Positions 9,813 to 51,750 of a stretch of DNA of 64,000 nt are shown one piece after another. Position numbers and translations under genes: made by a program. Within the stretch, counting starts at the first letter, position 1. Each line of letters starts with the position of its first letter. The notes below the pieces were generated by a model, which saw only the letters and a program-made list of their open reading frames with translations, was not told the origin of the DNA and did not search any database. Source of the DNA: a virus; IMG/VR virus record IMGVR_UViG_3300000052_000003; one strand, 5' to 3'.

Positions 9813-10985
9813 TTAAACAAAATTGTATTTTCCAGTTCCAGCCTTAAAGTCTAGCTTTCTCCAGGCAAGCGCCAAAGCCATGACGCAGTCATCGTGAAAA
9901 CCGCTCGGTGCTGAGTACTTTACACCATTAGCAGAGTACTGGTACTCAAAGATTTCAAGCTCCTCCTGGATCATGCCTGGAGGGTAGTGAATTTTTTCTT
10001 GATGGATCGCCACCTGCAAGCCTAACATTAATTCCTGCTTCGACTGGCTTGTAAACTTAAAGCCCTCGATCGCTAATCCTTCGCGCTGGAGTTGCTCGAC
10101 TACCGGATCACCTACGCCAGTGCTATCGATCAACATCGGAGCCCTGGGAAGCGTTCTGATTTTATTTTGTGTGCTAGCCCAGTCACTTTGGAATCGATCA
10201 AAATAAGCGACGTTTCCGTTTGCATCCATTCCGATGATCACCGTCCAGTCGCTATACTTTGCAAGGTCAATTCCGTAAACCTTAACCGGCTCCGATGACA
10301 TAGCAGAAACACATTTGGAAAGAGCCTGAGATCCAAAAGGATTCGCGCTATTCTCTGCTGGGTTTGCCATGTATTCCTGCTCGAATACGACTTCAGGAAG
10401 TGCAAGTCTTGCGCTATCGATTTCATCGTCTGAGATATACGGATTATCATAAGAGCTAAACTTAAACGATTCCCACTCGCTGGATGGATCAATCCCTTTT
10501 AAGAATAAAGAATAAAAGAAGTTCTTCCCTTTCGGAGTTGATAAGAAGATCGCCTTCCCCTGGTAATCTGTAAGCGTTGGACGTATCGCATTATTCCAGC
10601 CATCTTCAAGATCAGGAATAAAGGAAGCCTCATCAATGATCACATAGTGAAACTTTAAACCGCGGAGATTATCCAGGCGTTCACCAGTGAAGAATCTGAT
10701 CGATCCTCCAGAGATTAACTTAAAGGTTAGATCCGATCGGTTTGGTATCGCTACGTTTGCCGGCATCAATAAGGCCAGCTCATCGAAGAACGCCTTAGCT
10801 AATAGATACGTCGGTGTGATGTAAGCTACGCGCTTTCCTTGCATGGATTCAAGGCAAGTGATTACCTGGCAGATTAAGGACTTACCCCATCGTCTGCCGG
10901 ACATTAACACCTTGAACCTTGCTTTTGAATTTAAGACCTTCGCTTGGTTAGTGTGTGGTCTAGGAAGTGTGATCTTCGTTTGCAA
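9813..10985 (-). CDS. terL: Terminase large subunit
   Basis: Walker A SGRRWGKS, Walker B VIIDEA, nuclease motifs GIDLAKYSD and HDDCVMALALA. Confidence 0.95.
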   Translation of the reverse strand: MQTKITLPRPHTNQAKVLNSKARFKVLMSGRRWGKSLICQVITCLESMQGKRVAYITPTYLLAKAFFDELALLMPANVAIPNRSDLTFKLISGGSIRFFTGERLDNLRGLKFHYVIIDEASFIPDLEDGWNNAIRPTLTDYQGKAIFLSTPKGKNFFYSLFLKGIDPSSEWESFKFSSYDNPYISDDEIDSARLALPEVVFEQEYMANPAENSANPFGSQALSKCVSAMSSEPVKVYGIDLAKYSDWTVIIGMDANGNVAYFDRFQSDWASTQNKIRTLPRAPMLIDSTGVGDPVVEQLQREGLAIEGFKFTSQSKQELMLGLQVAIHQEKIHYPPGMIQEELEIFEYQYSANGVKYSAPSGFHDDCVMALALAWRKLDFKAGTGKYNFV

Positions 10986-12355: not shown

Positions 12356-13378
12356 TTACTCGATTAGTTTGGAGTAAGTAGCAAATCGGGCCTCGTTAAT
12401 TTTAAAGATGTCGTAATGTTCGCGGACATATTCCCCATTTGCCTTACCATAGTCCTCTCGCATCTGCTTGCTAAATGCCATTCGTTTGATATCCCTCTCC
12501 CAGTTATCCACTTCGAAGATCGTTGGAATATCATCATAAGGAGCTCGCTTGTAGGTTAAGATCGGGATGTTTTTCGCTCCTGCCTCCAGGGCTTTAAGGT
12601 TTGACTTTAGACGGTTAAATTTATTATCTAGCAAAGGAACCAGAAGCATGTCAGCCTCCAGGTAGAAATTCATGTATAGATCCACCGGCATCGATTCAAG
12701 TATCTTGTATTCAAGCTTCTCGTTTGCCGTGTAGATATCGCCTATCTGCTTCCAGTGCCATTCGTTAAAATTATTCCATCCACATAAAAGCATTCTAGCG
12801 TTATCTCTAAATACCTTAGACTTCGCCAGCTCTGCAATAGGTTGCTTCAGTTGCTGGATGTCTGGATAGTGAGTGATCGATCCAGTGTGTGCGATTGTGA
12901 CTTTCTCATTTTCCTTTCTTACATCTGTGAACTGATCCTTATCGAATGGCAATGCGTTTGGCAGGATCTCGCAGTTTTTATTTATTTGGATTATTTCTAA
13001 ATAAAGTCTATTGTGAGTCGTTGTAACTAGGTCCGCGTGTTTGATGTAGTCACGAATAATCCTAGTGATCCCTAACTTGCGATAAGTGCCAGCGCTTAGG
13101 TGCTTATCAAATAGAATCCAATAGTCATCGATATCGATCACCAATTTAAATCCAAACTTCTGGCGCCACTCCAGGAGCTGAAGCAAAGGCACCGATTCCA
13201 GGAACCGATTTACCACTACGACGTTAAAGTTTTTATCCTTCAATAGCTCCTCTGTGATCGTGTCAGTTATCAGGCAGTATTCCTTCTCCATGATCGACAA
13301 AGGAAGCGCCAGTCTGTGATAGGTTACTCCGCTATTTTGACTTCCTACCGCGAGGATTCTTAGCTTGGATTTTGTCAT
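12356..13378 (-). CDS. GT-B (GT4-like) glycosyltransferase
   Basis: SGVTYHR, DIDD, and PLLDNKFNRLKSNLKALEAG donor-binding motif. Confidence 0.85.
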   Translation of the reverse strand: MTKSKLRILAVGSQNSGVTYHRLALPLSIMEKEYCLITDTITEELLKDKNFNVVVVNRFLESVPLLQLLEWRQKFGFKLVIDIDDYWILFDKHLSAGTYRKLGITRIIRDYIKHADLVTTTHNRLYLEIIQINKNCEILPNALPFDKDQFTDVRKENEKVTIAHTGSITHYPDIQQLKQPIAELAKSKVFRDNARMLLCGWNNFNEWHWKQIGDIYTANEKLEYKILESMPVDLYMNFYLEADMLLVPLLDNKFNRLKSNLKALEAGAKNIPILTYKRAPYDDIPTIFEVDNWERDIKRMAFSKQMREDYGKANGEYVREHYDIFKINEARFATYSKLIE

Positions 13379-15849: not shown

Positions 15850-17268
15850 CTAAAATTTAGCCTCCTCGAAGGTGTGATTTATTGTATTGATCGCGCTTTG
15901 CTTATCCGAACCCGTTCCAATTTGGAACGCTTTGAGTTCCTCGTAAGAATCCGCGATTCGATTGGTAGTAACATCGACGTATCGATCAATAGTGCAAGTC
16001 TCTCCGTCTCTATTTTTAAGTATCACATAATTAAGGATATTATCGTCCGGTCCTTTGGGGGTATTGTTAGCCCTGGCGTCAGTGTACTTGTAATAGTCAT
16101 CACGATATAAACCTATAACTGCAATCGCGTCCTGCTCGACATTCCCAGAGCTTCTAATATCTGATAACTGGGGCAGTCTTGATGATCGCCCCTCTATGCC
16201 CCTGGATAACTGAGACAAGGCGATTATCGGAATCTTTAGCTTCCTGGTTAGCTTCTGGATTTTATTTGATACGGATGAAACCTGGGCAAAGTCAGACTGA
16301 TCCTTGAGCTGATTGTCTCTGATCAGTTGAAGATAGTCAATAACTACCAGGTCAATTTTATTCCGTTTGGCCTCAGATGTCAGGATCATGGACAGATAAT
16401 TAATATCACGATTATCGGAGTCATAAAAGAAGATCGGTAAGGATTTTAAGATCGAAGCGTTTGAGTTGCGGATCTTAAGGATGTCATCTGGCTTCACTCG
16501 GTTAGCTTTTAGATCGCTATACTTGTAGTCAAAATTCTCGGAGCTTATAAGTCTATACATTAGCGACTCCTTTGGCATCTCAAGCGAAAGGAATAGAACT
16601 CTTTTGCCAGATTTTGCAGCGCTCTTAGCGTGTTGCAATCCAGCGATTGTCTTTCCCATACCTGGACGCCCAGCGATAACCGTCATTCCTTCCTGGAATC
16701 CTCCAAGAATATAATTTAGATCCCTTGATCCAGTGTCAATCCCTGAGAATTTTATCTTTCCAGCGTTTGCTTCTAGTCGATCAATCACTTGATCATAAAT
16801 AGTTGCGATATCAAACACCTCAGAGGAGGCTACCGACTTATCTAGGCTTTCAATCTCCTTATCTACGATCGTTTGTAAGTCAGAGACTTCCTTATTATCC
16901 AGGATTGCCGTCTGTAATTTGAAGGCAAGATCGTAAAATCTCCTCTTTCCTTCTGTCTCTTTTAGCTGATAGCACGATTCTTCTAGGTTGATCACACGAT
17001 CTGGCATCAATTTTAGGATCAATTCGGATGAATATCCCTTTTCTGATTCCTTTGATTTAAGCAATCTAAATACATCCGCTCTAGTGATTCTCTTATCTTC
17101 TAGAGATAACTCTTTAAATCCAAGGAATGACGCCTTAAATAAAGCGTCAGTAAAAGATTCTTCACTGACTAATTTATTAGCCTCGCTAAATAGGTGAGGA
17201 TAAGCTAGTAAGTGTGCAATGATGTCACGCTCTAGGTGAACATCGTTAAGATTTATTTTTACTGCCAT
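15850..17268 (-). CDS. dnaB: Replicative helicase
   Basis: GRPGMGKT, SLEM, IDYLQL, LSQLSR, DIRSSGNVEQDA, KNRDG. Confidence 0.95.
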   Translation of the reverse strand: MAVKINLNDVHLERDIIAHLLAYPHLFSEANKLVSEESFTDALFKASFLGFKELSLEDKRITRADVFRLLKSKESEKGYSSELILKLMPDRVINLEESCYQLKETEGKRRFYDLAFKLQTAILDNKEVSDLQTIVDKEIESLDKSVASSEVFDIATIYDQVIDRLEANAGKIKFSGIDTGSRDLNYILGGFQEGMTVIAGRPGMGKTIAGLQHAKSAAKSGKRVLFLSLEMPKESLMYRLISSENFDYKYSDLKANRVKPDDILKIRNSNASILKSLPIFFYDSDNRDINYLSMILTSEAKRNKIDLVVIDYLQLIRDNQLKDQSDFAQVSSVSNKIQKLTRKLKIPIIALSQLSRGIEGRSSRLPQLSDIRSSGNVEQDAIAVIGLYRDDYYKYTDARANNTPKGPDDNILNYVILKNRDGETCTIDRYVDVTTNRIADSYEELKAFQIGTGSDKQSAINTINHTFEEAKF

Positions 17269-17975
17269 TGTTCTGGTATTATAGGTTTGTTCTGCAATGT
17301 AGTTAAATTGCGATTATCTTGTGCTCCTGGAGTTGTATTATTTTTTTTAGGAGAAAATAATCCTTGATAATTATTAGAAATTGAGTGATTAATTGCAAGC
17401 TCTAAATCTTCATCGCTTTTATCTGACCACTCCTTTTGTAGTTGTAAGGATCCAATAAGAGTATAGCTAGACTTCTTTTCTTTTTTATAATCAAACCATC
17501 TTTGAAAAAGAAAATCTCGCTTAGTAAAATCTCCTTTGATTTTCTCTTCTTTACTTTCTTCTTCTTTACTTTCCTTTACTTTGTTGAACGGTCGTTGAAC
17601 GGTCGTTGAACGGTCGTTGCTAAGTCGCTTAGCAGCAGACTTTAAGCCAGCATCTCTACGTTGTTCTTTCATCTTAAAATAGGGCTCCAAATAGATCAAC
17701 ATTTTAGGAGAAAAGAATTTCTGTTCTGGATCGAGTTGAAACAATTCGTAGTTGCAGATCACGACTCTGATCTTCTGCTCTGAGGTTCCAAACTCTTCAG
17801 CTAATAGATCAATGTCTTCGATTGGATACATCAAATCTTGTTGCTCTCTTAGCGTCTCCAATAACATAAAATAAATACCGTACCCTTCAAGTCCGAGCTC
17901 CTTTCTTAGTCGCTTAATCTTTCGATCATGTCTAGCGTTACAAAAGTGTGGGAAATAATAAGCGTCTTTTTGCAT
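17259..17975 (-). CDS. Replication initiator (DUF4373/Lin1244-like N-terminal domain)
   Basis: YFPH...DRKIKRLRKELGLEGYGIYFMLLE N-terminus; internal iterons; upstream of dnaB. Confidence 0.8.
   Translation of the reverse strand: MQKDAYYFPHFCNARHDRKIKRLRKELGLEGYGIYFMLLETLREQQDLMYPIEDIDLLAEEFGTSEQKIRVVICNYELFQLDPEQKFFSPKMLIYLEPYFKMKEQRRDAGLKSAAKRLSNDRSTTVQRPFNKVKESKEEESKEEKIKGDFTKRDFLFQRWFDYKKEKKSSYTLIGSLQLQKEWSDKSDEDLELAINHSISNNYQGLFSPKKNNTTPGAQDNRNLTTLQNKPIIPEQWQ
17545..17619. repeat. Putative replication origin: 3.4 x 11-bp GTTGAACGGTC iterons plus adjacent TCTTTACTT repeats
   Basis: Tandem repeat 17583-17619 inside the initiator gene, lambda O-like arrangement. Confidence 0.75.
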
Positions 17976-17986
17976 TGTAATAAAAT

Positions 17987-18072
17987 AAAAAAAAGCCAGT
18001 CTGCGTAGGAGTGCAAATCTGGCTCTGGTTTTTAAACCCTTAAATAACCCAAGAACTCCTACCCTCTTGGCT
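17987..18072 (-). promoter_or_regulatory. Structured initiator leader: two hairpins with complementary loops, the second followed by U8
   Basis: Loops GTAGGAGT and ACTCCTAC on the mRNA are exact 8-nt complements. Confidence 0.7.
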
Positions 18073-18081
18073 TATTGTTCT

Positions 18082-18089
18082 CAAATATA
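18082..18089 (-). promoter_or_regulatory. -7 promoter element TATATTTG for the initiator leader
   Basis: Matches TAnnTTTG about 10 nt upstream of the first leader hairpin. Confidence 0.6.
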
Positions 18090-18106
18090 AAAAACATTTT
18101 TAACAC

Positions 18107-18301
18107 CTACAAATCATTTAAAAGATTCTCGAGTCTCATGATCTCTGCCTCCGCTTCGCTCATTTTATCCAGGATCAGATCGAATGCTTTGACATCTGGA
18201 TTGTAATACTTCATGATCTGAGTGTACTCGTTAAGATCAATTTTACGGTGAGCGATCTGGACATTCACCACTGCAAGAAAGCATCTGTCTTCTAGTGTCA
18301 T
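18107..18301 (-). CDS. Hypothetical protein (64 aa)
   Basis: Coupled operon ORF. Confidence 0.6.
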   Translation of the reverse strand: MTLEDRCFLAVVNVQIAHRKIDLNEYTQIMKYYNPDVKAFDLILDKMSEAEAEIMRLENLLNDL

Positions 18302-18498
18302 TGTCTTTCCTTTATGTGACTAACTACTTCACGCCAGTACGTCGCATCTAGTCCGTCGATGATCCGATTTTTAATGATCAGAATTGAGTTTTCCAGGGCT
18401 TCTTCTAGGACGTATTTCATCTGAATCTTACCATATTGCTTTAGATGAGTTTCGCTGATATAGTCGATTATATCGTCTGCCTTTTCTTTCGGTGTCAT
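18298..18498 (-). CDS. Small hypothetical protein (MTPKEKA-type)
   Basis: Paralogous to 18502-18693 and 13944-14135. Confidence 0.7.
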   Translation of the reverse strand: MTPKEKADDIIDYISETHLKQYGKIQMKYVLEEALENSILIIKNRIIDGLDATYWREVVSHIKERQ

Positions 18499-18501
18499 GG
18501 C

Positions 18502-18693
18502 TTACAGATTTATAAGGTCCTCTCTTAATTCTGCCCAATAACTAAGATCTAAATCGCCAGCGTGGATCGCTTCCATCACTATCTCAGCTCCTAGAATTGC
18601 GGAGGCGATGGCCTCCTCTTTATTTTTCTTGATCTGTGGATGCGATTCCTGGAAACGCTTCACTAGACTTATTGCGAATTGCTTTCTTGTCAT
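18502..18693 (-). CDS. Small hypothetical protein (MTRKQFA-type paralog)
   Basis: CACATCTAACC leader; C-terminal YWAEL. Confidence 0.7.
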   Translation of the reverse strand: MTRKQFAISLVKRFQESHPQIKKNKEEAIASAILGAEIVMEAIHAGDLDLSYWAELREDLINL

Positions 18694-18708
18694 TGTCTTG
18701 GTTAGATG

Positions 18709-18746
18709 TGGGCCAGCCTAGATGACCGGCCCAGTTTACAAATATA
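18709..18746 (-). promoter_or_regulatory. -7 element TATATTTG followed by a 5' hairpin (TGGGCC/GGCCCA)
   Basis: CAAATATA at 18739-18746 on +; stem arms 18709-18714 and 18728-18733. Confidence 0.55.
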
Positions 18747-19013
18747 CTAATTTTTTACTTTCCTGATTCTGTGAAAGAATATACCTTCCAGGTAAGGGAA
18801 GTCTGATTCTAACTTTCTCGAATAGTCTGCCGTGTAGTTATTATTTACTTTATATCGATCAGTCTTTTCGATCATTGACTCCCAGCGGATCCTCTCGAAG
18901 ATCTGCTTAGCTCCAATTTTTTTGTGACCGTTATTGATCAGCAAAAAGGCAAAGCGTTTGAACTCTTCGTAGATCCTGGGATTTAGCTCGTGATACTCTT
19001 TGAATGTTAGCAT
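18747..19013 (-). CDS. Conserved phage protein (88 aa, possible winged-helix)
   Basis: NPRIYEEF...IFERIRW...KVNNNY pattern; TCACATCT leader. Confidence 0.7.
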   Translation of the reverse strand: MLTFKEYHELNPRIYEEFKRFAFLLINNGHKKIGAKQIFERIRWESMIEKTDRYKVNNNYTADYSRKLESDFPYLEGIFFHRIRKVKN

Positions 19014-20458: not shown

Positions 20459-20487
20459 GATTTAGATGTTTTGTAGTTGCTTCGTTG

Positions 20488-20541
20488 CTGACTACATGAC
20501 AAATTTAATACCTTTTTTGATATAAAAAAACTTTTTTTAAA
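20488..20541 (-). promoter_or_regulatory. Early promoter P3 (A/T box-TATCAA-N9-TAAATTTG-N4-GTAGTCAG)
   Basis: Identical spacing to P1 and P2. Confidence 0.8.
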
Positions 20542-20567
20542 TTTATTTTAAATTATTTTTCAGACAC

Positions 20568-20600
20568 AAAAAAAGCCCAAGGATAAGATCCCAGGGCTTT
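20568..20600 (-). terminator. Intrinsic terminator ending the minus-strand late transcript / sRNA
   Basis: GCCC..GGAT-loop-ATCC..GGGC stem followed by U7 on the minus strand. Confidence 0.8.
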
Positions 20601-20636
20601 AGTATTCACATCTAAACCTATACTATGAAAAACAAT
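20568..20636 (-). ncRNA. Candidate antisense sRNA targeting ACATCTAA(AC) leaders of early genes
   Basis: TAAATTTG promoter at 20641-20648, TAGTAT/ATACTA stem with loop AGGTTTAGATGTGA, then terminator; 5' end estimated. Confidence 0.55.
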
Positions 20637-20645
20637 TAAACAAAT

Positions 20646-21638
20646 TTACACTATTTTTCCTTCTTTAATCATAAGATTCGAAACTTTACTTTTGCCGTCT
20701 TTAATTTCTACCAGTGCGAAGCCGTGATTATGCTGGGCAAAAGGATAGTATTTGGGAGACAAGTGAGTCAGGCACCCAGTCGAATAGGAATGAATGAAGT
20801 TTTTAAACCCGTCTTTCTTTGTCGTGCTAGTGGTCCGATGAACGTGACCAATCAAGGTATTGCAGAAAGTCTTATTAAATGTAGTCTGGGAAGGATTCAT
20901 TCCGCCAGCCATGATCTCGTGTCCATGACAAACTAATAAATCTCCCATTTCCATACCTTGCCAGTCCTCTACCCACTCGATTTTTAAGTGATCCATACGG
21001 AAGAACTTATCGAATTGCAATTCGTGGAGGCCGGCGAACTCCTCCGCCTGGCTAAACAGATAGCGCTGGAATCGATTCTCGTGATTGCCTGCCTTAAAAT
21101 AGATTGGAATAGTTGGAAAGATGTCGCGAAGCTTCTGAAGAAAGTTTCTAGCCATCTCGATCTCTCGCGGGAAGTCTCTAAGATCCTTCTCCTTCTCGTG
21201 TCTAGATATCGAATAGAAGTCGAAGGTATCACCGTTCAAATAAAGGCAGTCGATCTCTTGCTCTCTTAGGTACTTAATAGCGCAGGTAAGCGCTTCTAAA
21301 GAATGAAACGGGACATGGATGTCTGATAGGATCCCGATCTTTTTTAAGTGATCTGGAAGGCGTGCACTGGTGTAATCTTTCCCGATCCCTGGCTCAATCC
21401 CAAAGCTATCGATTTCGTCCAGGTTAAATGATTCTATCTTAGCGCTTGGTCTTGTCTTTTTAAAGTATTCGGACCTATCCTTTACAGATATACCTAGTCT
21501 AGTCATCTGGCGATGAAAGGTAGATAAATCTTTATATCCGTAATTCTCCCAATTTTCACGCTCAAAATCTGCGCGAGTCATATTAGTAGAATAAAAATGC
21601 TTTTTTATCGCCTCGGATTTACCGTTGTCTTTGTTCAT
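20646..21638 (-). CDS. Calcineurin-like metallophosphoesterase with N-terminal extension
   Basis: SDIH, NGD..D, GNHE, HGHE, GHVHR metal-binding motifs. Confidence 0.9.
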   Translation of the reverse strand: MNKDNGKSEAIKKHFYSTNMTRADFERENWENYGYKDLSTFHRQMTRLGISVKDRSEYFKKTRPSAKIESFNLDEIDSFGIEPGIGKDYTSARLPDHLKKIGILSDIHVPFHSLEALTCAIKYLREQEIDCLYLNGDTFDFYSISRHEKEKDLRDFPREIEMARNFLQKLRDIFPTIPIYFKAGNHENRFQRYLFSQAEEFAGLHELQFDKFFRMDHLKIEWVEDWQGMEMGDLLVCHGHEIMAGGMNPSQTTFNKTFCNTLIGHVHRTTSTTKKDGFKNFIHSYSTGCLTHLSPKYYPFAQHNHGFALVEIKDGKSKVSNLMIKEGKIV

Positions 21639-22261: not shown

Positions 22262-22717
22262 TTAAGAGAAGTAAAGGTCAGCCTCCGCTTGACGTCGTTT
22301 AGTTAATCCAGCTAGAACCTTTCCGCCTCCCTTATTCCACTTCATAAACTCCGCGCGAATCGTCGGATCATTCGGATTAAGATTGACTTTCTTTAATAAA
22401 GTGGATGATTTTAGATTTCTTGGTCCGCAATTATAAGCAAAGGATGCAAGTGCATCGAATTGATTTTGACTGATATCGTCGCGACAGAAACTATCGACGT
22501 CTTTCTCGTAGGATTGAATTAAAAACTTTAGTAACTCTTCTGCTTTTTGAGGAGTGATCGCCGGATCTGTTAATTTTACTTTAGATCCATCTGGATAATA
22601 GCAATTTCCAAACCCGATTGTCGGAATGTTAGCAGGGCAAAGGTATGGCTTCAATTTAAGCCCCTCAAATCTTTTTATTAGATCGAGTCCTTTTTGGCTG
22701 GCTTTGGTTACTTTCAT
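22262..22717 (-). CDS. Endolysin (GH24 lysozyme)
   Basis: FEG....Y.C.A..PTIGFG catalytic region, QNQFDALASFAYNCG, GLTKRR..E. Confidence 0.92.
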   Translation of the reverse strand: MKVTKASQKGLDLIKRFEGLKLKPYLCPANIPTIGFGNCYYPDGSKVKLTDPAITPQKAEELLKFLIQSYEKDVDSFCRDDISQNQFDALASFAYNCGPRNLKSSTLLKKVNLNPNDPTIRAEFMKWNKGGGKVLAGLTKRRQAEADLYFS

Positions 22718-22985
22718 CAATTATGCCTAGTTTGGTTTTTAGGTTTGAATTTTCGGATTTTAAAGAGTGAACTTCAGCCGTTAAGACGTCTATCTTGTCG
22801 CTTAGTTCCTTCACTTTGTCAGACATTTCTTGAGCCATCTGTCTCCAGATTTCGATGGCCTTAGAGGTTTGATCGAGCTCAGAGGTTGTGATCTCAGCCT
22901 GCTCTTTTCTTCTACCTACTAGCCATCCGATCAGTGCGGCGATCGCCCCCGTGACAGATTGCCCAAGAATGTCTTCCAAATTCAT
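22665..22985 (-). CDS. Putative holin/antiholin (one N-terminal TM plus coiled coil)
   Basis: Hydrophobic N-terminus then basic residues; directly upstream of endolysin. Confidence 0.55.
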   Translation of the reverse strand: MNLEDILGQSVTGAIAALIGWLVGRRKEQAEITTSELDQTSKAIEIWRQMAQEMSDKVKELSDKIDVLTAEVHSLKSENSNLKTKLGIIDESNQSQPKRTRSNKKI

Positions 22986-27571: not shown

Positions 27572-29545
27572 TTAGTCTTTTTTTATTACCACTTGAGAAG
27601 CCCAGACGTGACGGCAAGAAGGAGAGTGTTCTCCGTCTGGCATTGTCCACCAGCCACCGCGACGATCAAATACTGAATAACCTAGGCGCAAGCTGATCGC
27701 TTCGATTTCTGCTCTGGTGTATAGCTTATCTAATTGCATCAAGCGCGCACAGAATTGTCTGCTTGGATGCGCTGCTGAGTTTCTCTGTCCTGCTGGTATC
27801 GATGATCTCCACTCGTAAGAATAACGGACCATAAAGCTACGCGTCGATGGCTTGGTGTCAGTGATCTCAGATAGGGGAGATGTTAAAATTCTCTCGACGT
27901 TTCCCCTTACATTTGTGGACTTGATCAAACCGCGCTCCTCTAAGGAGTCCATGATTTTATTTATGATCCCTAGATCCGTTTTGATCGTCCCAGCTATAAT
28001 CTCAGGAGTGATTCTTTTGTCCTTCTGGATGAGATCCAATACATTCGCCTCTAGACGCGTTAATTCTTGCGTAGCAAAGTCTAAATTCATCGCCTCCTCT
28101 AAGTCATTAGGCAAAGCAGAGAACGTGTCTCTAGTGCGAAATATGGAGTAATTACTTTTAGACTCTCCGAACTGATCAAATATCGAGATTACATCATCTT
28201 CGCTGAATCGTAAATTAGTAGAAGCTGGAGCTCCTTCTAATTCAGATCCACCTTGCTCAGCTATTAAGCCTACCAAAGCGCGGACCTCATTTGGAGTCAT
28301 TGACTCAAGTACTTTATTTGCTACTAATGGCGATAAGCTATTGATTGCATCGATCACATCCTGAGAAGTTCCAGAAGTTTTCGGTTCTAATTTAGGAGCT
28401 CCAAGTTTTTCGCGGATCTCGTCTTTAGTTAAGTTCTGCGCGATCGTAGTTTCAGAGAACTCCATACCAATCGGCTCGACTGGAATTATTTGTAGCCCAT
28501 TGATAGCACCGCGTAATTTGGCAAGTAAACTGAATACTTGTTCTTGATATATTTGCTTATCATTTACATAAGTGTTTTTAAATATCTCGTAAGAATCGCG
28601 CATTTGCTGGCGTGATCCTAATTGCCCAGGTGTAGCAATACCGAATAAATCTGGAGACGTGATCTGGTGACCAGCGTACACGTTTTTCTCAATGATTTTA
28701 TCTACGTTTGCGAAATCCTCCTTTGTAATATCAGAAGCTCCTAGATCCTCAATGATTGGCTTTCTAGAAGCATCGTTCACAAAGGAAAGAATGAACTTTT
28801 TTCCGTCGGATCCTGAGAAACGATCTGTAAATTTACGCTCTACTATTCTCTTCTCTTCATCTTGAGGCTCACCGTTAGGAAGAGTGATCAATTTTGAAGC
28901 ACTAAATCCGGTCTGAGCATTGCCTAAAACGTGCTTAGAAACCTCGATATCTGACTCGATATAGTTTAAAGCACCAATATAACCAGGTAAAGAGTAAGCC
29001 GAAAGGTTAGGACGGTACTCTTTTAGATACAAAATCTGGGTTCCTTGAGGCAATTTGTCGTTAAAAGCGTTGTAAATAGAGCGCTTATACTTACTATCTT
29101 GCCAGTTTTCAGAGTACCAGAACTGGGTATTATCGTCATTTGTCCGGACCTTAGTATAGTCTAAGTGATAAATCTCCGAAACTTGACCAGCTATCTGGCT
29201 CCAGATTACTTGAAGATAAGCACCTCCAAACAATTCGACGTCAGTAGATACTTTTTTTAAGATATCATTTAATGATTCGAAAGGGTTTGGCTTCTCAATA
29301 AACTCCTGAGCGATCTGATCGTTTTCATCTACTGGTTTAAAGCCATTACCAGTGATATAATTTACCTTGCTTTTAATAATCGCGTTATGCTTAGCTGATT
29401 TAGTAAACAAATCGACCAAGTAATTAGGGTAGTCGTTCTTTTTTCCGAACTCAATATATCCGCCGTTCTCTCCTTTTTTCTCAGAGTATTCTGGCTGCCT
29501 TGCTTCAGCAAAGGTAAGGACATTTAAAAAGTTTGTATTGCTCAT
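27572..29545 (-). CDS. Portal protein with C-terminal winged-helix and MuF-like extensions
   Basis: Portal-like core (HNAIIKSK..YITGNG, GHQITSP.LFGI); C-terminal SRQFC and CRHVW motifs. Confidence 0.85.
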   Translation of the reverse strand: MSNTNFLNVLTFAEARQPEYSEKKGENGGYIEFGKKNDYPNYLVDLFTKSAKHNAIIKSKVNYITGNGFKPVDENDQIAQEFIEKPNPFESLNDILKKVSTDVELFGGAYLQVIWSQIAGQVSEIYHLDYTKVRTNDDNTQFWYSENWQDSKYKRSIYNAFNDKLPQGTQILYLKEYRPNLSAYSLPGYIGALNYIESDIEVSKHVLGNAQTGFSASKLITLPNGEPQDEEKRIVERKFTDRFSGSDGKKFILSFVNDASRKPIIEDLGASDITKEDFANVDKIIEKNVYAGHQITSPDLFGIATPGQLGSRQQMRDSYEIFKNTYVNDKQIYQEQVFSLLAKLRGAINGLQIIPVEPIGMEFSETTIAQNLTKDEIREKLGAPKLEPKTSGTSQDVIDAINSLSPLVANKVLESMTPNEVRALVGLIAEQGGSELEGAPASTNLRFSEDDVISIFDQFGESKSNYSIFRTRDTFSALPNDLEEAMNLDFATQELTRLEANVLDLIQKDKRITPEIIAGTIKTDLGIINKIMDSLEERGLIKSTNVRGNVERILTSPLSEITDTKPSTRSFMVRYSYEWRSSIPAGQRNSAAHPSRQFCARLMQLDKLYTRAEIEAISLRLGYSVFDRRGGWWTMPDGEHSPSCRHVWASQVVIKKD

Positions 29546-29928: not shown

Positions 29929-29966
29929 CGAGATTAAATAGCAAAGGATTAATTATTTTATTAAAC

Positions 29967-29995
29967 AAAAAAAAGAGGAGGCTCTCGCCCCCTCC
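29967..29995 (-). terminator. Intrinsic terminator after the tail tube gene
   Basis: GAGGGGGC-GAGA-GCCTCCTC stem followed by U8. Confidence 0.85.
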
Positions 29996-30020
29996 CCCGT
30001 CTAACCAAACGACTATCTTA

Positions 30021-31588: not shown

Positions 31589-32182
31589 TTATTTTAAATT
31601 TTTTACTTTGTTTAAAAATCTCTCGATTTTCTCGTCTCTTTTCTCAGATTGAGAGAAAGAATTTTTTGGTGCCTGGATAGGACTAGCGCCTGGAGTTGAA
31701 GCTAAACCTAAAACTACGTCAGATAGATCATTGATCGCTTGAGAGAATTTACCCTCGATAGATGCGATCTTAGCTTTTAAAGCTTCGTTCTCTGCCTTTA
31801 AGTTTTCGATAGTGCCATCAATTACCTGGAACTTATCTTCTTCCATTGGAATTTCTTCCTCTGGCATTTCAATCGGCTCCATTTCTGCCTGAGGTGTCTC
31901 AATGCCTTCAATTTTGCCCCCTACGGTTGTGACCATAGTACCGTCTACTAGCTCATGCTCGCCATCTGGAGCAGGATAAGTATTGCCGCTTTCATCCACT
32001 AGCATCGCTTCAGCTCCAATCTCTAAACCGCTTAATTCAATCTTAGATCCGTCTTTAAGATCATAAGTTTCAAAAGCTAATTCTGCGACTGGTGCCTCTG
32101 GTTCGCTAGTCTCTACTTGATCGACCTCAAATTCTGAAGCCAGCATCAAGCGGATTTTTTCGATTCCTTCTTTTACCGTCAT
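31589..32182 (-). CDS. Capsid scaffolding protein
   Basis: Very acidic, APDGEHEL.DG motif, C-terminal coiled coil; directly upstream of the capsid gene. Confidence 0.8.
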   Translation of the reverse strand: MTVKEGIEKIRLMLASEFEVDQVETSEPEAPVAELAFETYDLKDGSKIELSGLEIGAEAMLVDESGNTYPAPDGEHELVDGTMVTTVGGKIEGIETPQAEMEPIEMPEEEIPMEEDKFQVIDGTIENLKAENEALKAKIASIEGKFSQAINDLSDVVLGLASTPGASPIQAPKNSFSQSEKRDEKIERFLNKVKNLK

Positions 32183-50263: not shown

Positions 50264-51750
50264 TGTAATAAAATAAAAAAAAGCCAGTCTGCGTAGGAGT
50301 GCAAATCTGGCTCTGGTTTTTAAACCCTTAAATAACCCAAGAACTCCTACCCTCTTGGCTTATTGTTCTCAAATATAAAAAACATTTTTAACACCTACAA
50401 ATCATTTAAAAGATTCTCGAGTCTCATGATCTCTGCCTCCGCTTCGCTCATTTTATCCAGGATCAGATCGAATGCTTTGACATCTGGATTGTAATACTTC
50501 ATGATCTGAGTGTACTCGTTAAGATCAATTTTACGGTGAGCGATCTGGACATTCACCACTGCAAGAAAGCATCTGTCTTCTAGTGTCATTGTCTTTCCTT
50601 TATGTGACTAACTACTTCACGCCAGTACGTCGCATCTAGTCCGTCGATGATCCGATTTTTAATGATCAGAATTGAGTTTTCCAGGGCTTCTTCTAGGACG
50701 TATTTCATCTGAATCTTACCATATTGCTTTAGATGAGTTTCGCTGATATAGTCGATTATATCGTCTGCCTTTTCTTTCGGTGTCATGGCTTACAGATTTA
50801 TAAGGTCCTCTCTTAATTCTGCCCAATAACTAAGATCTAAATCGCCAGCGTGGATCGCTTCCATCACTATCTCAGCTCCTAGAATTGCGGAGGCGATGGC
50901 CTCCTCTTTATTTTTCTTGATCTGTGGATGCGATTCCTGGAAACGCTTCACTAGACTTATTGCGAATTGCTTTCTTGTCATTGTCTTGGTTAGATGTGGG
51001 CCAGCCTAGATGACCGGCCCAGTTTACAAATATACTAATTTTTTACTTTCCTGATTCTGTGAAAGAATATACCTTCCAGGTAAGGGAAGTCTGATTCTAA
51101 CTTTCTCGAATAGTCTGCCGTGTAGTTATTATTTACTTTATATCGATCAGTCTTTTCGATCATTGACTCCCAGCGGATCCTCTCGAAGATCTGCTTAGCT
51201 CCAATTTTTTTGTGACCGTTATTGATCAGCAAAAAGGCAAAGCGTTTGAACTCTTCGTAGATCCTGGGATTTAGCTCGTGATACTCTTTGAATGTTAGCA
51301 TCTTGCTTTATTTGAGATGTGATGTAAAGTTTACGACGATCATTTTGAAGCTCTCTGGCTATGTGATCCATCCAGTCATTGAAATTAAGCTTGTTCGTAT
51401 TCATTGTAGATCAATTTAATTTCGTCTAAAACCTCTGGATATTTTACCTTCCCGTATACGGTCTGCTGAACTATCGCAGTGGTCCACTCTCTAGCGCTAA
51501 AGGGCTTAATCCCTTTAGCATTTAAACGCTCAGCACATTGCTGATAAACATTCATTTTTTTAACTCTTGTCATCTTCATTTTCTTTTAATTTCATGTAAG
51601 GACTTGATCCGATTACTTTATAACCTGACCACATTTGCCAGTCCACATATTTAACGTATTCCTCGCTGGAAGCAAACCGCTCAATGACGCTGTAATAATT
51701 GCCTGACGGGCTCTTCAAGTCTAACCTTAGAACCTGGGGATAAGTCTCTT

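Follow-up and report, generated by a model that had tools for sequence, protein, structure and literature searches.

In IMG/VR virus record IMGVR_UViG_3300000052_000003, of which a stretch of 64,000 nucleotides (nt) was analyzed (hereafter the window), two adjacent genes on the minus strand form the start of a replication operon. The first (17259-17975) codes for a 238-amino-acid (aa) replication initiation protein of the DUF4373/Lin1244_N type (Pfam PF14297, E = 6e-14; PHROG 2562), and the second (15850-17268), which overlaps it by 10 nt, for a DnaB-type replicative helicase (Pfam DnaB_C, E = 1e-61). Between a promoter and the ATG of the initiator gene at 17975 lies an untranslated leader, the subject of this analysis, in which the loop of a 5′ hairpin is complementary to the apical loop of a terminator hairpin. 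The window holds one genome of 32,288 base pairs (bp) written approximately twice, with no mismatch over 31,712 bases at an offset of 32,288, which suggests a circular or circularly permuted assembly. Every feature below position 31,713 therefore recurs, and the stretch from the first to the second hairpin is found again, by exact matches, at 50282-50358 on the minus strand. Coordinates of the leader are those of the first copy and refer to the minus strand.

The leader promoter (18082-18113) was identified by direct reading and consists of a -33 TTTG element (18113-18110), a 20-nt spacer, and the -7 box TATATTTG (18089-18082). The arrangement TTTG-N20-TAnnTTTG corresponds to the consensus recognized by the primary Bacteroidota sigma factor (PMC7366714). 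TATATTTG, which a first-pass annotation of this DNA had taken for a promoter element, is thus a consensus Bacteroidota -7 box accompanied by its -33 TTTG. The full motif (TTTG-N17-23-TAnnTTTG) has only two matches on the minus strand of the genome, one of which is the leader promoter. The -33 TTTG overlaps the stop codon of an upstream 64-aa open reading frame (ORF; 18107-18301). The first hairpin (H1) begins about 6 nt past the -7 box, where the 5′ end of the RNA is predicted. The distance from the box to H1 is fixed in an alignment of 93 relatives, and the RNA is therefore expected to start within a few bases of H1.

The minimum free energy (MFE) fold of the leader contains three hairpins. 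H1 (18044-18075) has an outer stem (18075-18072/18047-18044, AAUA/UUAU) and an inner stem (18070-18065/18054-18049) closed by the loop GGGUAGGAGU (18064-18055); read directly, its core is CCAAGA-[GGGTAGGAGT]-TCTTGG at 18070-18049. A small middle hairpin, P2 (GGUU-UAAA-AACC, 18027-18038), follows. The terminator stem, H2 (17994-18024), reads AGCCAG-A-TTTGC-[ACTCCTAC]-GCAGA-CTGGCT from 18024 to 17994 and folds into a 6-bp, G+C-rich lower stem (AGCCAG/CUGGCU), a bulged A18018, a 5-bp upper stem (UUUGC/GCAGA), and the loop ACUCCUAC (18012-18005), with an energy of -16.3 kcal/mol. By direct reading, it runs into a U8 tract (17987-17994), the first U being the last base of the stem and the other seven lying beyond it. 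The 11-nt spacer AUUUUAUUACA (17976-17986), made up of A and U only and with A at -3, -6, and -11, separates the tract from the ATG. H2 and U8, placed between a promoter and the first gene, have the anatomy of an intrinsic terminator, and the sequence predicts termination there. A simple terminator scan reported H1 and missed H2, probably because of the 1-nt bulge.

The loops GUAGGAGU of H1 (18062-18055) and ACUCCUAC of H2 (18012-18005) are perfect 8-nt complements, with a loop-loop duplex energy of -11.0 kcal/mol. Seven of the eight nucleotides are conserved: the strand GUAGGAG in the H1 loop (18056-18062), of the conserved form GU-NNN-AG, faces CUCCUAC in the terminator apical loop (18005-18011), of the conserved form CU-NNN-AC, and U18055 contributes the eighth pair in this phage. 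The MFE fold of H1, P2, and H2 has an energy of -37.9 kcal/mol (z = -3.6), and none of 200 shuffles was as stable (RNAfold). Eight complementary nucleotides arise by chance in about 1e-4 of trials with random loops of the same sizes and in 0.25% of composition-preserving shuffles. On the minus strand, direct reading confirmed the two hairpins, the complementarity of their loops, and all the coordinates given in the first-pass annotation, and its description of H2 and U8 as terminator-like, directly ahead of the replication initiator and dnaB, agrees with this anatomy. Its U8 holds when the last stem base is counted; the 12 nt that it placed between the tract and the ATG are in fact 11.

The paired loops are peculiar to this locus. 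Neither of the 7-mers GTAGGAG and CTCCTAC has a second occurrence in the 32,288-bp genome, and among all genome hairpins preceding T runs, this leader alone has a loop complement of more than 6 nt on the coding strand. No second leader was found in the genome, either with the covariance model R1 of the class of leaders described next (class 1), which finds one copy, or with a general scan in which terminator loops were checked for a complement upstream; related loci also give one R1 match each. On the non-coding strand of the portal gene (about 28740-28800, plus strand), a hairpin before a T run has the loop ACAAAGGAAA and an 8-nt complement upstream, which is probably due to chance or part of a longer stem.

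Comparison with relatives indicated that the loop pairing is conserved as a structure. A search of IMG/VR with the initiator protein (Rep) yielded 73 related loci, whose upstream regions were compared. At these Rep-linked loci, the two loop strands change together, giving the pairs GUAGGAG/CUCCUAC, GUGAGAG/CUCUCAC, GUGGUAG/CUACCAC, GUCAGAG/CUCUGAC, and GUCGGAG/CUCCGAC. Since sequences should not be chosen by the feature under test, we also scanned IMG/VR with a pattern that described H2 only and left the three central loop bases free. This returned 120 distinct matches, namely, 113 family members and 7 unrelated terminators without promoter or H1. Each of the 113 family members carries in its H1 loop the exact complement of its own H2 loop, and the class comprises six loop types that differ in the central triplet only. 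As controls, bacterial genomes matching the H2 pattern gave 1 chance complement among the 120 matches listed, all of which were unrelated terminators, and 84 unrelated matches to the pattern of a second class (see below) gave none.

An alignment of 93 distinct class-1 sequences (A1) was scored as a full structure, including the pseudoknot. In A1, 95.1% of the cells are paired, compared with 36 to 48% when partners are slid by 1 to 3 columns, and the covariation score is 0.333 compared with 0.120 in shuffles, none of 500 shuffles reaching the observed value. The 7-bp interloop helix is paired in 100% of the cells, exclusively by Watson-Crick pairs, and its three central pairs covary (GC/AU/CG, GC/AU, and GC/UA). 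All 10 pairs of the H1 stem change on both sides in relatives (97.7% of cells paired), and the upper-stem pairs of H2 covary (98.4% of cells paired). P2 is also present in class-1 relatives with some matched changes, such as GGUA/UACC, its column support being weak because the alignment is poor at that position. Thus, the loop complementarity put forward in the first-pass annotation is upheld in homologous leaders both by covariation and by the exact complements of the scan. The alignment contains 92 G·U cells as opposed to 41 A·C cells, and a U·G pair at A1 columns 96/113 fits the sense strand only. Together with the location of the promoter and the U tract on the sense strand, this excess indicates that the folded molecule is the sense transcript. 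Every leader retrieved with the Rep protein as the sole query has a run of 5 to 9 U.

A divergent class-1 subtype (L120, 3003-4390; L204, 924-1856) has the loop pair GUGAUAG/CUAUCAC, a larger H1 loop, and a longer middle hairpin. It precedes genes for ParB-like N6/N4 DNA methylases or ParB/GmrSD-like proteins, not an initiator gene.

About a third of the Rep-linked loci carry at the same place a leader of different sequence, which we call class 2 and with which the R1 model has no match. Its members include L012, L229 (3279-3388), L231, L224, and L068. Their H1 is 6 bp long and has a 14-nt loop; an 11-nt linker leads to a long H2, which contains an internal loop and is followed by a U tract. 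Here it is the H2 apical loop that holds the purine-rich strand, with the 8-nt complement lying in the loop of H1, and six of the eight paired nucleotides are variable. Five class-2 types were found: GUAGUGAG, GUCGAGAG, GUGAGAAC, GUGAGAAG, and GUGAGAUC. As the class-2 alignment (A2) puts the loops in different registers, no pair counts are given for this class, and pairing was checked sequence by sequence. A class-1 locus (L014) and a class-2 locus (L012) have an identical upstream flank of more than 40 nt that includes the promoter, and their sequences part immediately behind the -7 box; identical upstream genes are found with either class. That two architectures at one locus make the same contact between a 5′ hairpin loop and a terminator loop argues that this contact is their functional core. 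Altogether, a class-1 or class-2 leader is present in at least 60 of the 73 protein-retrieved loci, with at least 11 discrete loop types across both classes.

The position of the leader is constant with respect to the start codon of the downstream gene, whatever that gene may be. The ATG lies 8 to 14 nt past the end of the matched CTGGCTTTTTT in 108 of 113 members, and the first genes are unrelated: they encode two kinds of DUF4373 proteins, HTH_36 proteins, ParB-like N6/N4 methylases, and HNH endonucleases, or are small ORFs. This diversity points to an operon leader rather than an origin or an initiator-specific site. Across 112 relatives, positions -1 to -16 hold at most 3% G, and A is found at -3 in 77%. 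Such a G-poor start region fits the initiation of translation without a Shine-Dalgarno sequence in Bacteroidota (PMC7366714). In some relatives (e.g., L106, 874-1392; L127, 1930-2346), an HNH endonuclease gene is located directly behind the leader and ahead of the replication genes, a position that fits a homing-type insertion at the module boundary.

Rfam 15 contains no relevant match: cmscan of 17000-19000 with E values up to 10 gave three chance-level matches only. No description of the motif was found in the literature searched. The text of a catalogue of approximately 10,000 candidate viral structured RNAs (PMC10690425) describes nothing similar, and the catalogue itself may contain this leader. 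On the comparative evidence, we regard the leader as a real conserved RNA motif that is absent from Rfam and as a candidate new RNA family.

The arrangement of these features suggests that the leader probably acts as a gate for transcription of the replication genes. Only 20 nt separate the terminator from the ATG, too few for a promoter, and therefore transcription of the replication genes has to pass through H2. Transcripts of an early operon of small ORFs upstream of the leader, with -7 boxes at 20507 and 18746, also meet H2. We propose, with about even confidence, that the terminator is locked by a constitutive kissing loop and that the element works as a transcription gate releasing an RNA of approximately 90 nt, a function that we infer from its anatomy. 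The RNA of about 90 nt would open the replication operon, the promoter firing about 6 nt before H1. The kissing helix would form unaided during transcription and tie H1 and the terminator hairpin into one compact domain. Most polymerases, coming from the leader promoter or from the upstream early operon, would stop at the U tract and leave a stable RNA of about 90 nt. The replication genes would then be expressed by read-through only, and the element would set the level or the timing of the transition from early to replication functions. Read-through might rely on leakiness or be allowed later by an antitermination signal, for which a phage early protein or a host factor would be candidates. 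On the read-through mRNA, the fold could provide cap-like protection of the 5′ end, leaving the U/A-rich stretch free for Shine-Dalgarno-independent initiation.

Kissing loops usually consist of 5 to 7 Watson-Crick pairs stacked between both stems and are stable alone, and ligand-dependent ones require a bulge or a non-Watson-Crick pair in the interloop helix (PMC10907184). The perfect interloop helix of 7 to 8 bp in every member therefore argues for a constitutive lock over a switch. The kiss should not hinder termination, since no conserved antiterminator fold was seen and the loop end of the 12-bp hairpin would be located outside the RNA exit channel.

Several points weigh against the gate with a constitutive lock. 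H2 is strong on its own (-16 kcal/mol), so the kiss is not needed for the stability of the terminator. No competing antiterminator fold is conserved: the MFE and centroid structures show all three hairpins together, and inspection across the types revealed no conserved complement to the 5′ arm of H2; hence, no switch is visible. One locus (L070, 2560-2680) has a promoter, a terminator, and an ATG in front of an HTH_36 gene, with an A/U-rich unstructured leader devoid of loop pairing, showing that a gate can exist without the kiss. The start site, the efficiency of termination, and the existence of the short RNA are all read from motifs. The phage probably infects Bacteroidota, a host phylum assigned only from the promoter motif and from start regions devoid of Shine-Dalgarno sequences. 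Finally, the sequence is compatible with pairing within one molecule and between molecules.

In the explanation that competes best, the terminated RNA of about 90 nt is itself the functional product, a trans-acting small RNA (sRNA) with the loop pair as its specificity type. We consider it rather unlikely. Such an RNA might pair with nascent leaders of the same or of a co-infecting phage and mediate type-specific feedback or incompatibility, as do the P4 CI RNA and plasmid countertranscripts, or it might form head-to-tail dimers or rings, as does the phi29 packaging RNA (pRNA). A promoter and a terminator of its own are the canonical anatomy of an intergenic sRNA (PMC7366714). The many discrete loop types in two classes also speak for it, as do the restriction of class-1 variation to the central bases, with fixed flanking GU/AC pairs, and the presence of several types on contigs of one metagenome sample (3300020047). 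In addition, the geometry of class 2, with a 6-bp H1, an H2 of about 20 layers, and an 11-nt linker, makes an intramolecular coaxial kiss hard according to a geometric estimate. Nevertheless, the genome offers no second target for the loop 7-mers, any trans partner would have to compete with the partner in cis, and the tightly kept spacing to the ATG is more in keeping with a 5′ untranslated region than with a free-standing gene. Local diversification was tested for and not seen: both flanks are at least 90% identical in 19 pairs of leaders of the same type and in no pair of leaders that differ in type. The changes of loop type look like compensatory drift combined with mosaic recombination at the module boundary, judging from these comparisons. 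A role in lysogenic immunity is unlikely, because no integrase or repressor was recognized among the PHROG and Pfam matches of the genome, many ORFs of which remain unannotated. The more specific proposal that the loop pair is a specificity code, the leader RNAs acting between molecules on nascent leaders or as head-to-tail dimers or rings, appears unlikely to us.

We also find it doubtful that the folded leader serves as a sensor or docking site at which a phage early protein, a host factor, or a small molecule relieves or enforces termination, in the manner of nut/N, qut/Q, or a riboswitch whose expression-platform loop is docked on the aptamer. Where a 5′ leader contains a terminator, a regulatory input is normally to be expected, and cobalamin riboswitches do kiss an aptamer loop to an expression-platform loop (PMC10907184). 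The leaders also have conserved unpaired bases, namely, GG 5′ of the H1 pairing strand in class 1 and, in class 2, AUUAUAG in the H1 loop and AAG in the H2 loop. Against a sensor, no Rfam family matches the leader even at an E value of 10, and every sequence has a perfect helix of 7 to 8 bp instead of the bulge or mismatch that ligand-dependent kissing loops need (PMC10907184). Moreover, two classes of unrelated sequence would have to recognize the same factor, and the upstream genes are common to both classes, so that a class-specific protein partner is not evident.

Alternatively, the kiss might act against termination, as part of a cis-acting read-through element like the HK022 put RNA that lets polymerase ignore H2 and downstream terminators; this is very unlikely in our view. 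The position directly behind the promoter does resemble that of put, and the need to transcribe the replication genes through H2 would be met. However, transcripts from upstream promoters carry the same RNA, so such an element would not discriminate between them. From what is known of the termination mechanism, a kiss at the loop end of the 12-bp hairpin, outside the exit channel, should not hinder formation of the stem. The U tract and the strong stem, which are kept in all members, would be pointless if they never acted. Lastly, a DNA-level element folded in single-stranded DNA, such as an origin, a single-strand initiation site, or an initiator binding site, would suit the adjoining initiator and helicase genes and is extremely improbable, as first genes of at least four unrelated families, methylase and HNH nuclease genes among them, follow the same leader, the promoter, U tract, and fixed ATG spacing are features of an RNA, and no iterons were noted.

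Two forms of molecular mimicry were rejected. CU-NNN-AC resembles an anticodon loop, as would be expected of tRNA mimicry or a T-box-like sensor, but the loop has 8 nt, the types include ACC and AUC, which to our knowledge are not bacterial anticodons, and class 2 pairs 8 nt, six of them variable. Mimicry of a Shine-Dalgarno or anti-Shine-Dalgarno sequence by AGGAG in loop 1 does not hold either, since this motif is absent from the types GUGAGAG and GUGGUAG and the start regions carry no G.

Among known systems, the leader appears to be a variant of leader attenuators and pseudoknots, as far as we infer its function. The first-pass annotation had likened it to the pseudoknots that control rep expression in IncI and IncB plasmids. 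In IncI-alpha, IncB, and IncL/M replicons (e.g., repZ of ColIb-P9), a hairpin loop of the rep leader indeed pairs with a distal site in the same RNA (PMC4705826). There, the distal site is the 4-nt CGCC located directly before the Shine-Dalgarno sequence of rep, and pairing frees a GUG start codon held in structure. A leader peptide has to be translated for this, and an antisense RNA blocks the pairing, so that four features define the control: the leader peptide, a partner adjoining the ribosome-binding site, the masking of the start codon, and the antisense RNA (PMC4705826). The leader described here differs on each of the first three counts. AUG and GUG are absent from it, and relatives do not conserve its two UUG frames (6 and 36 codons). 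The H1 loop has its partner in the apical loop of H2 (18011-18005), which is located about 30 nt ahead of the ATG, with the 3′ arm of H2 and the U tract in between. The ATG itself lies in an unpaired, G-free A/U stretch, both in the fold and in 112 relatives, and is not masked. With a terminator loop as the partner and a helix of 7 to 8 bp, control is most likely transcriptional, and the analogy with IncI and IncB was not sustained. The antisense RNA from the plus strand, also suggested in the first-pass annotation, found no backing: between 17800 and 18250, the plus strand has no TAnnTTTG box or relaxed form of it, a non-consensus promoter being possible.

Two other systems are closer in logic, although the leader is a member of neither. 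The lambdoid PR′-6S RNA-tR′ unit comprises a constitutive promoter, a strong terminator nearby, and a short RNA, and the late operon is expressed by read-through released by Q. Our leader shares the promoter, the near terminator, the short RNA that is predicted here, and the operon placed behind for read-through. It differs in that no Q-like protein or qut site was identified and in its location at the replication module, not at late genes; the lambda unit, for its part, has no loop-loop pseudoknot. The second system is the immunity of P4, together with c4 of P1 and P7, in which specificity changes by matched substitutions. As in P4 (CI RNA, seqA, and seqC), complementary segments in an untranslated leader are associated with premature termination before replication genes (PMC4825925). 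The CI RNA of P4 is processed, acts as an antisense factor in lysogens, and has two target sites, whereas the present leader has a single pair of partners, both of which are hairpin loops; no lysogeny genes were found, and there is no Rfam C4 or CI match.

Three further systems rely on loop contacts. In phi29 pRNA, two mutually complementary loops covary between phages and pair between molecules over 4 bp, in the service of the packaging motor near the genome end. The present RNA is instead a 5′ leader that ends in a terminator at the replication module, without an Rfam pRNA match. In pT181 and pIP501, a terminator is located in the rep leader and kissing-loop contacts decide on termination, by means of alternative folds and an antisense RNA that is a separate molecule. 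The present leader carries the two loops together on the sense transcript and conserves no alternative fold. The countertranscript-driven attenuators of these plasmids are cited in PMC10724649. In the L5-L13 contact of cobalamin riboswitches, an upstream hairpin loop docks on the loop of the expression-platform hairpin, through a helix that is imperfect and ligand dependent (PMC10907184); in our leader, the helix is free of imperfections throughout the family, and nothing resembling the conserved core of an aptamer is seen.

The genome is that of a tailed phage, as judged from PHROG matches to a large terminase (9813-10985), a portal protein (27572-29545), and an endolysin (22262-22720), as well as tape-measure-like PHROG matches of one protein. 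Nearly all genes are on the minus strand, and the leader, at the replication module, is 7 kb from the terminase gene. Nucleotide and protein searches revealed no close cultured relative or host, and the 120 listed matches of the H2 pattern in bacterial genomes included no prophage copy or host. Of the 1,191 Rep homologues found, all 120 listed are on metagenomic contigs of about 50 kb or less.

In the region upstream of the leader, the second consensus -7 box TATATTTG, at 18746, is followed by a G+C-rich hairpin, UGGGCCGG...GCUGGCCCA, without a U tract (18700-18755, minus strand). This hairpin precedes a 63-aa ORF (18502-18693), and the direct repeat CAUCUA is present in its loop and just after it. 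Further upstream (20459-20645, minus strand), the late or lysis genes probably end and the early small-ORF operon probably begins: a hairpin that resembles a terminator and has a U tract (20595-20576) comes first, and behind it lie an A/T-rich stretch and, at 20507, the -7 box TAAATTTG. Two ORFs of the structural region are separated by a terminator of very high G+C content, GGGGGAGGGGGCGAGAGCCUCCUC followed by U8 (-22.8 kcal/mol; 29929-30020, minus strand). Genes for a glycosyltransferase (12356-13378, minus strand), a metallophosphoesterase (20646-21638, minus strand), and an HD-type phosphohydrolase (1099-1617, on the opposite, plus strand) may have auxiliary or host-takeover functions.

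How Bacteroidota phages regulate their genes is almost unexplored, and the phages of about 32 kb described here are abundant in metagenomes, with more than 1,000 Rep homologues. At their switch into DNA replication stands a compact RNA fold with at least 11 natural orthogonal loop pairs in two architectures, which makes a candidate RNA family suitable for submission to Rfam. If the RNA acts in trans, it would represent an RNA-based compatibility code between phages. If the loop pair is a specificity code, co-resident related phages would be compatible or incompatible by an address of three to six bases, amounting to RNA-only incompatibility or immunity in lytic Bacteroidota phages. If instead the kiss tunes termination, the leader would be a new attenuator design, with the terminator loop as a docking site, and would offer a ready family of orthogonal RNA parts.

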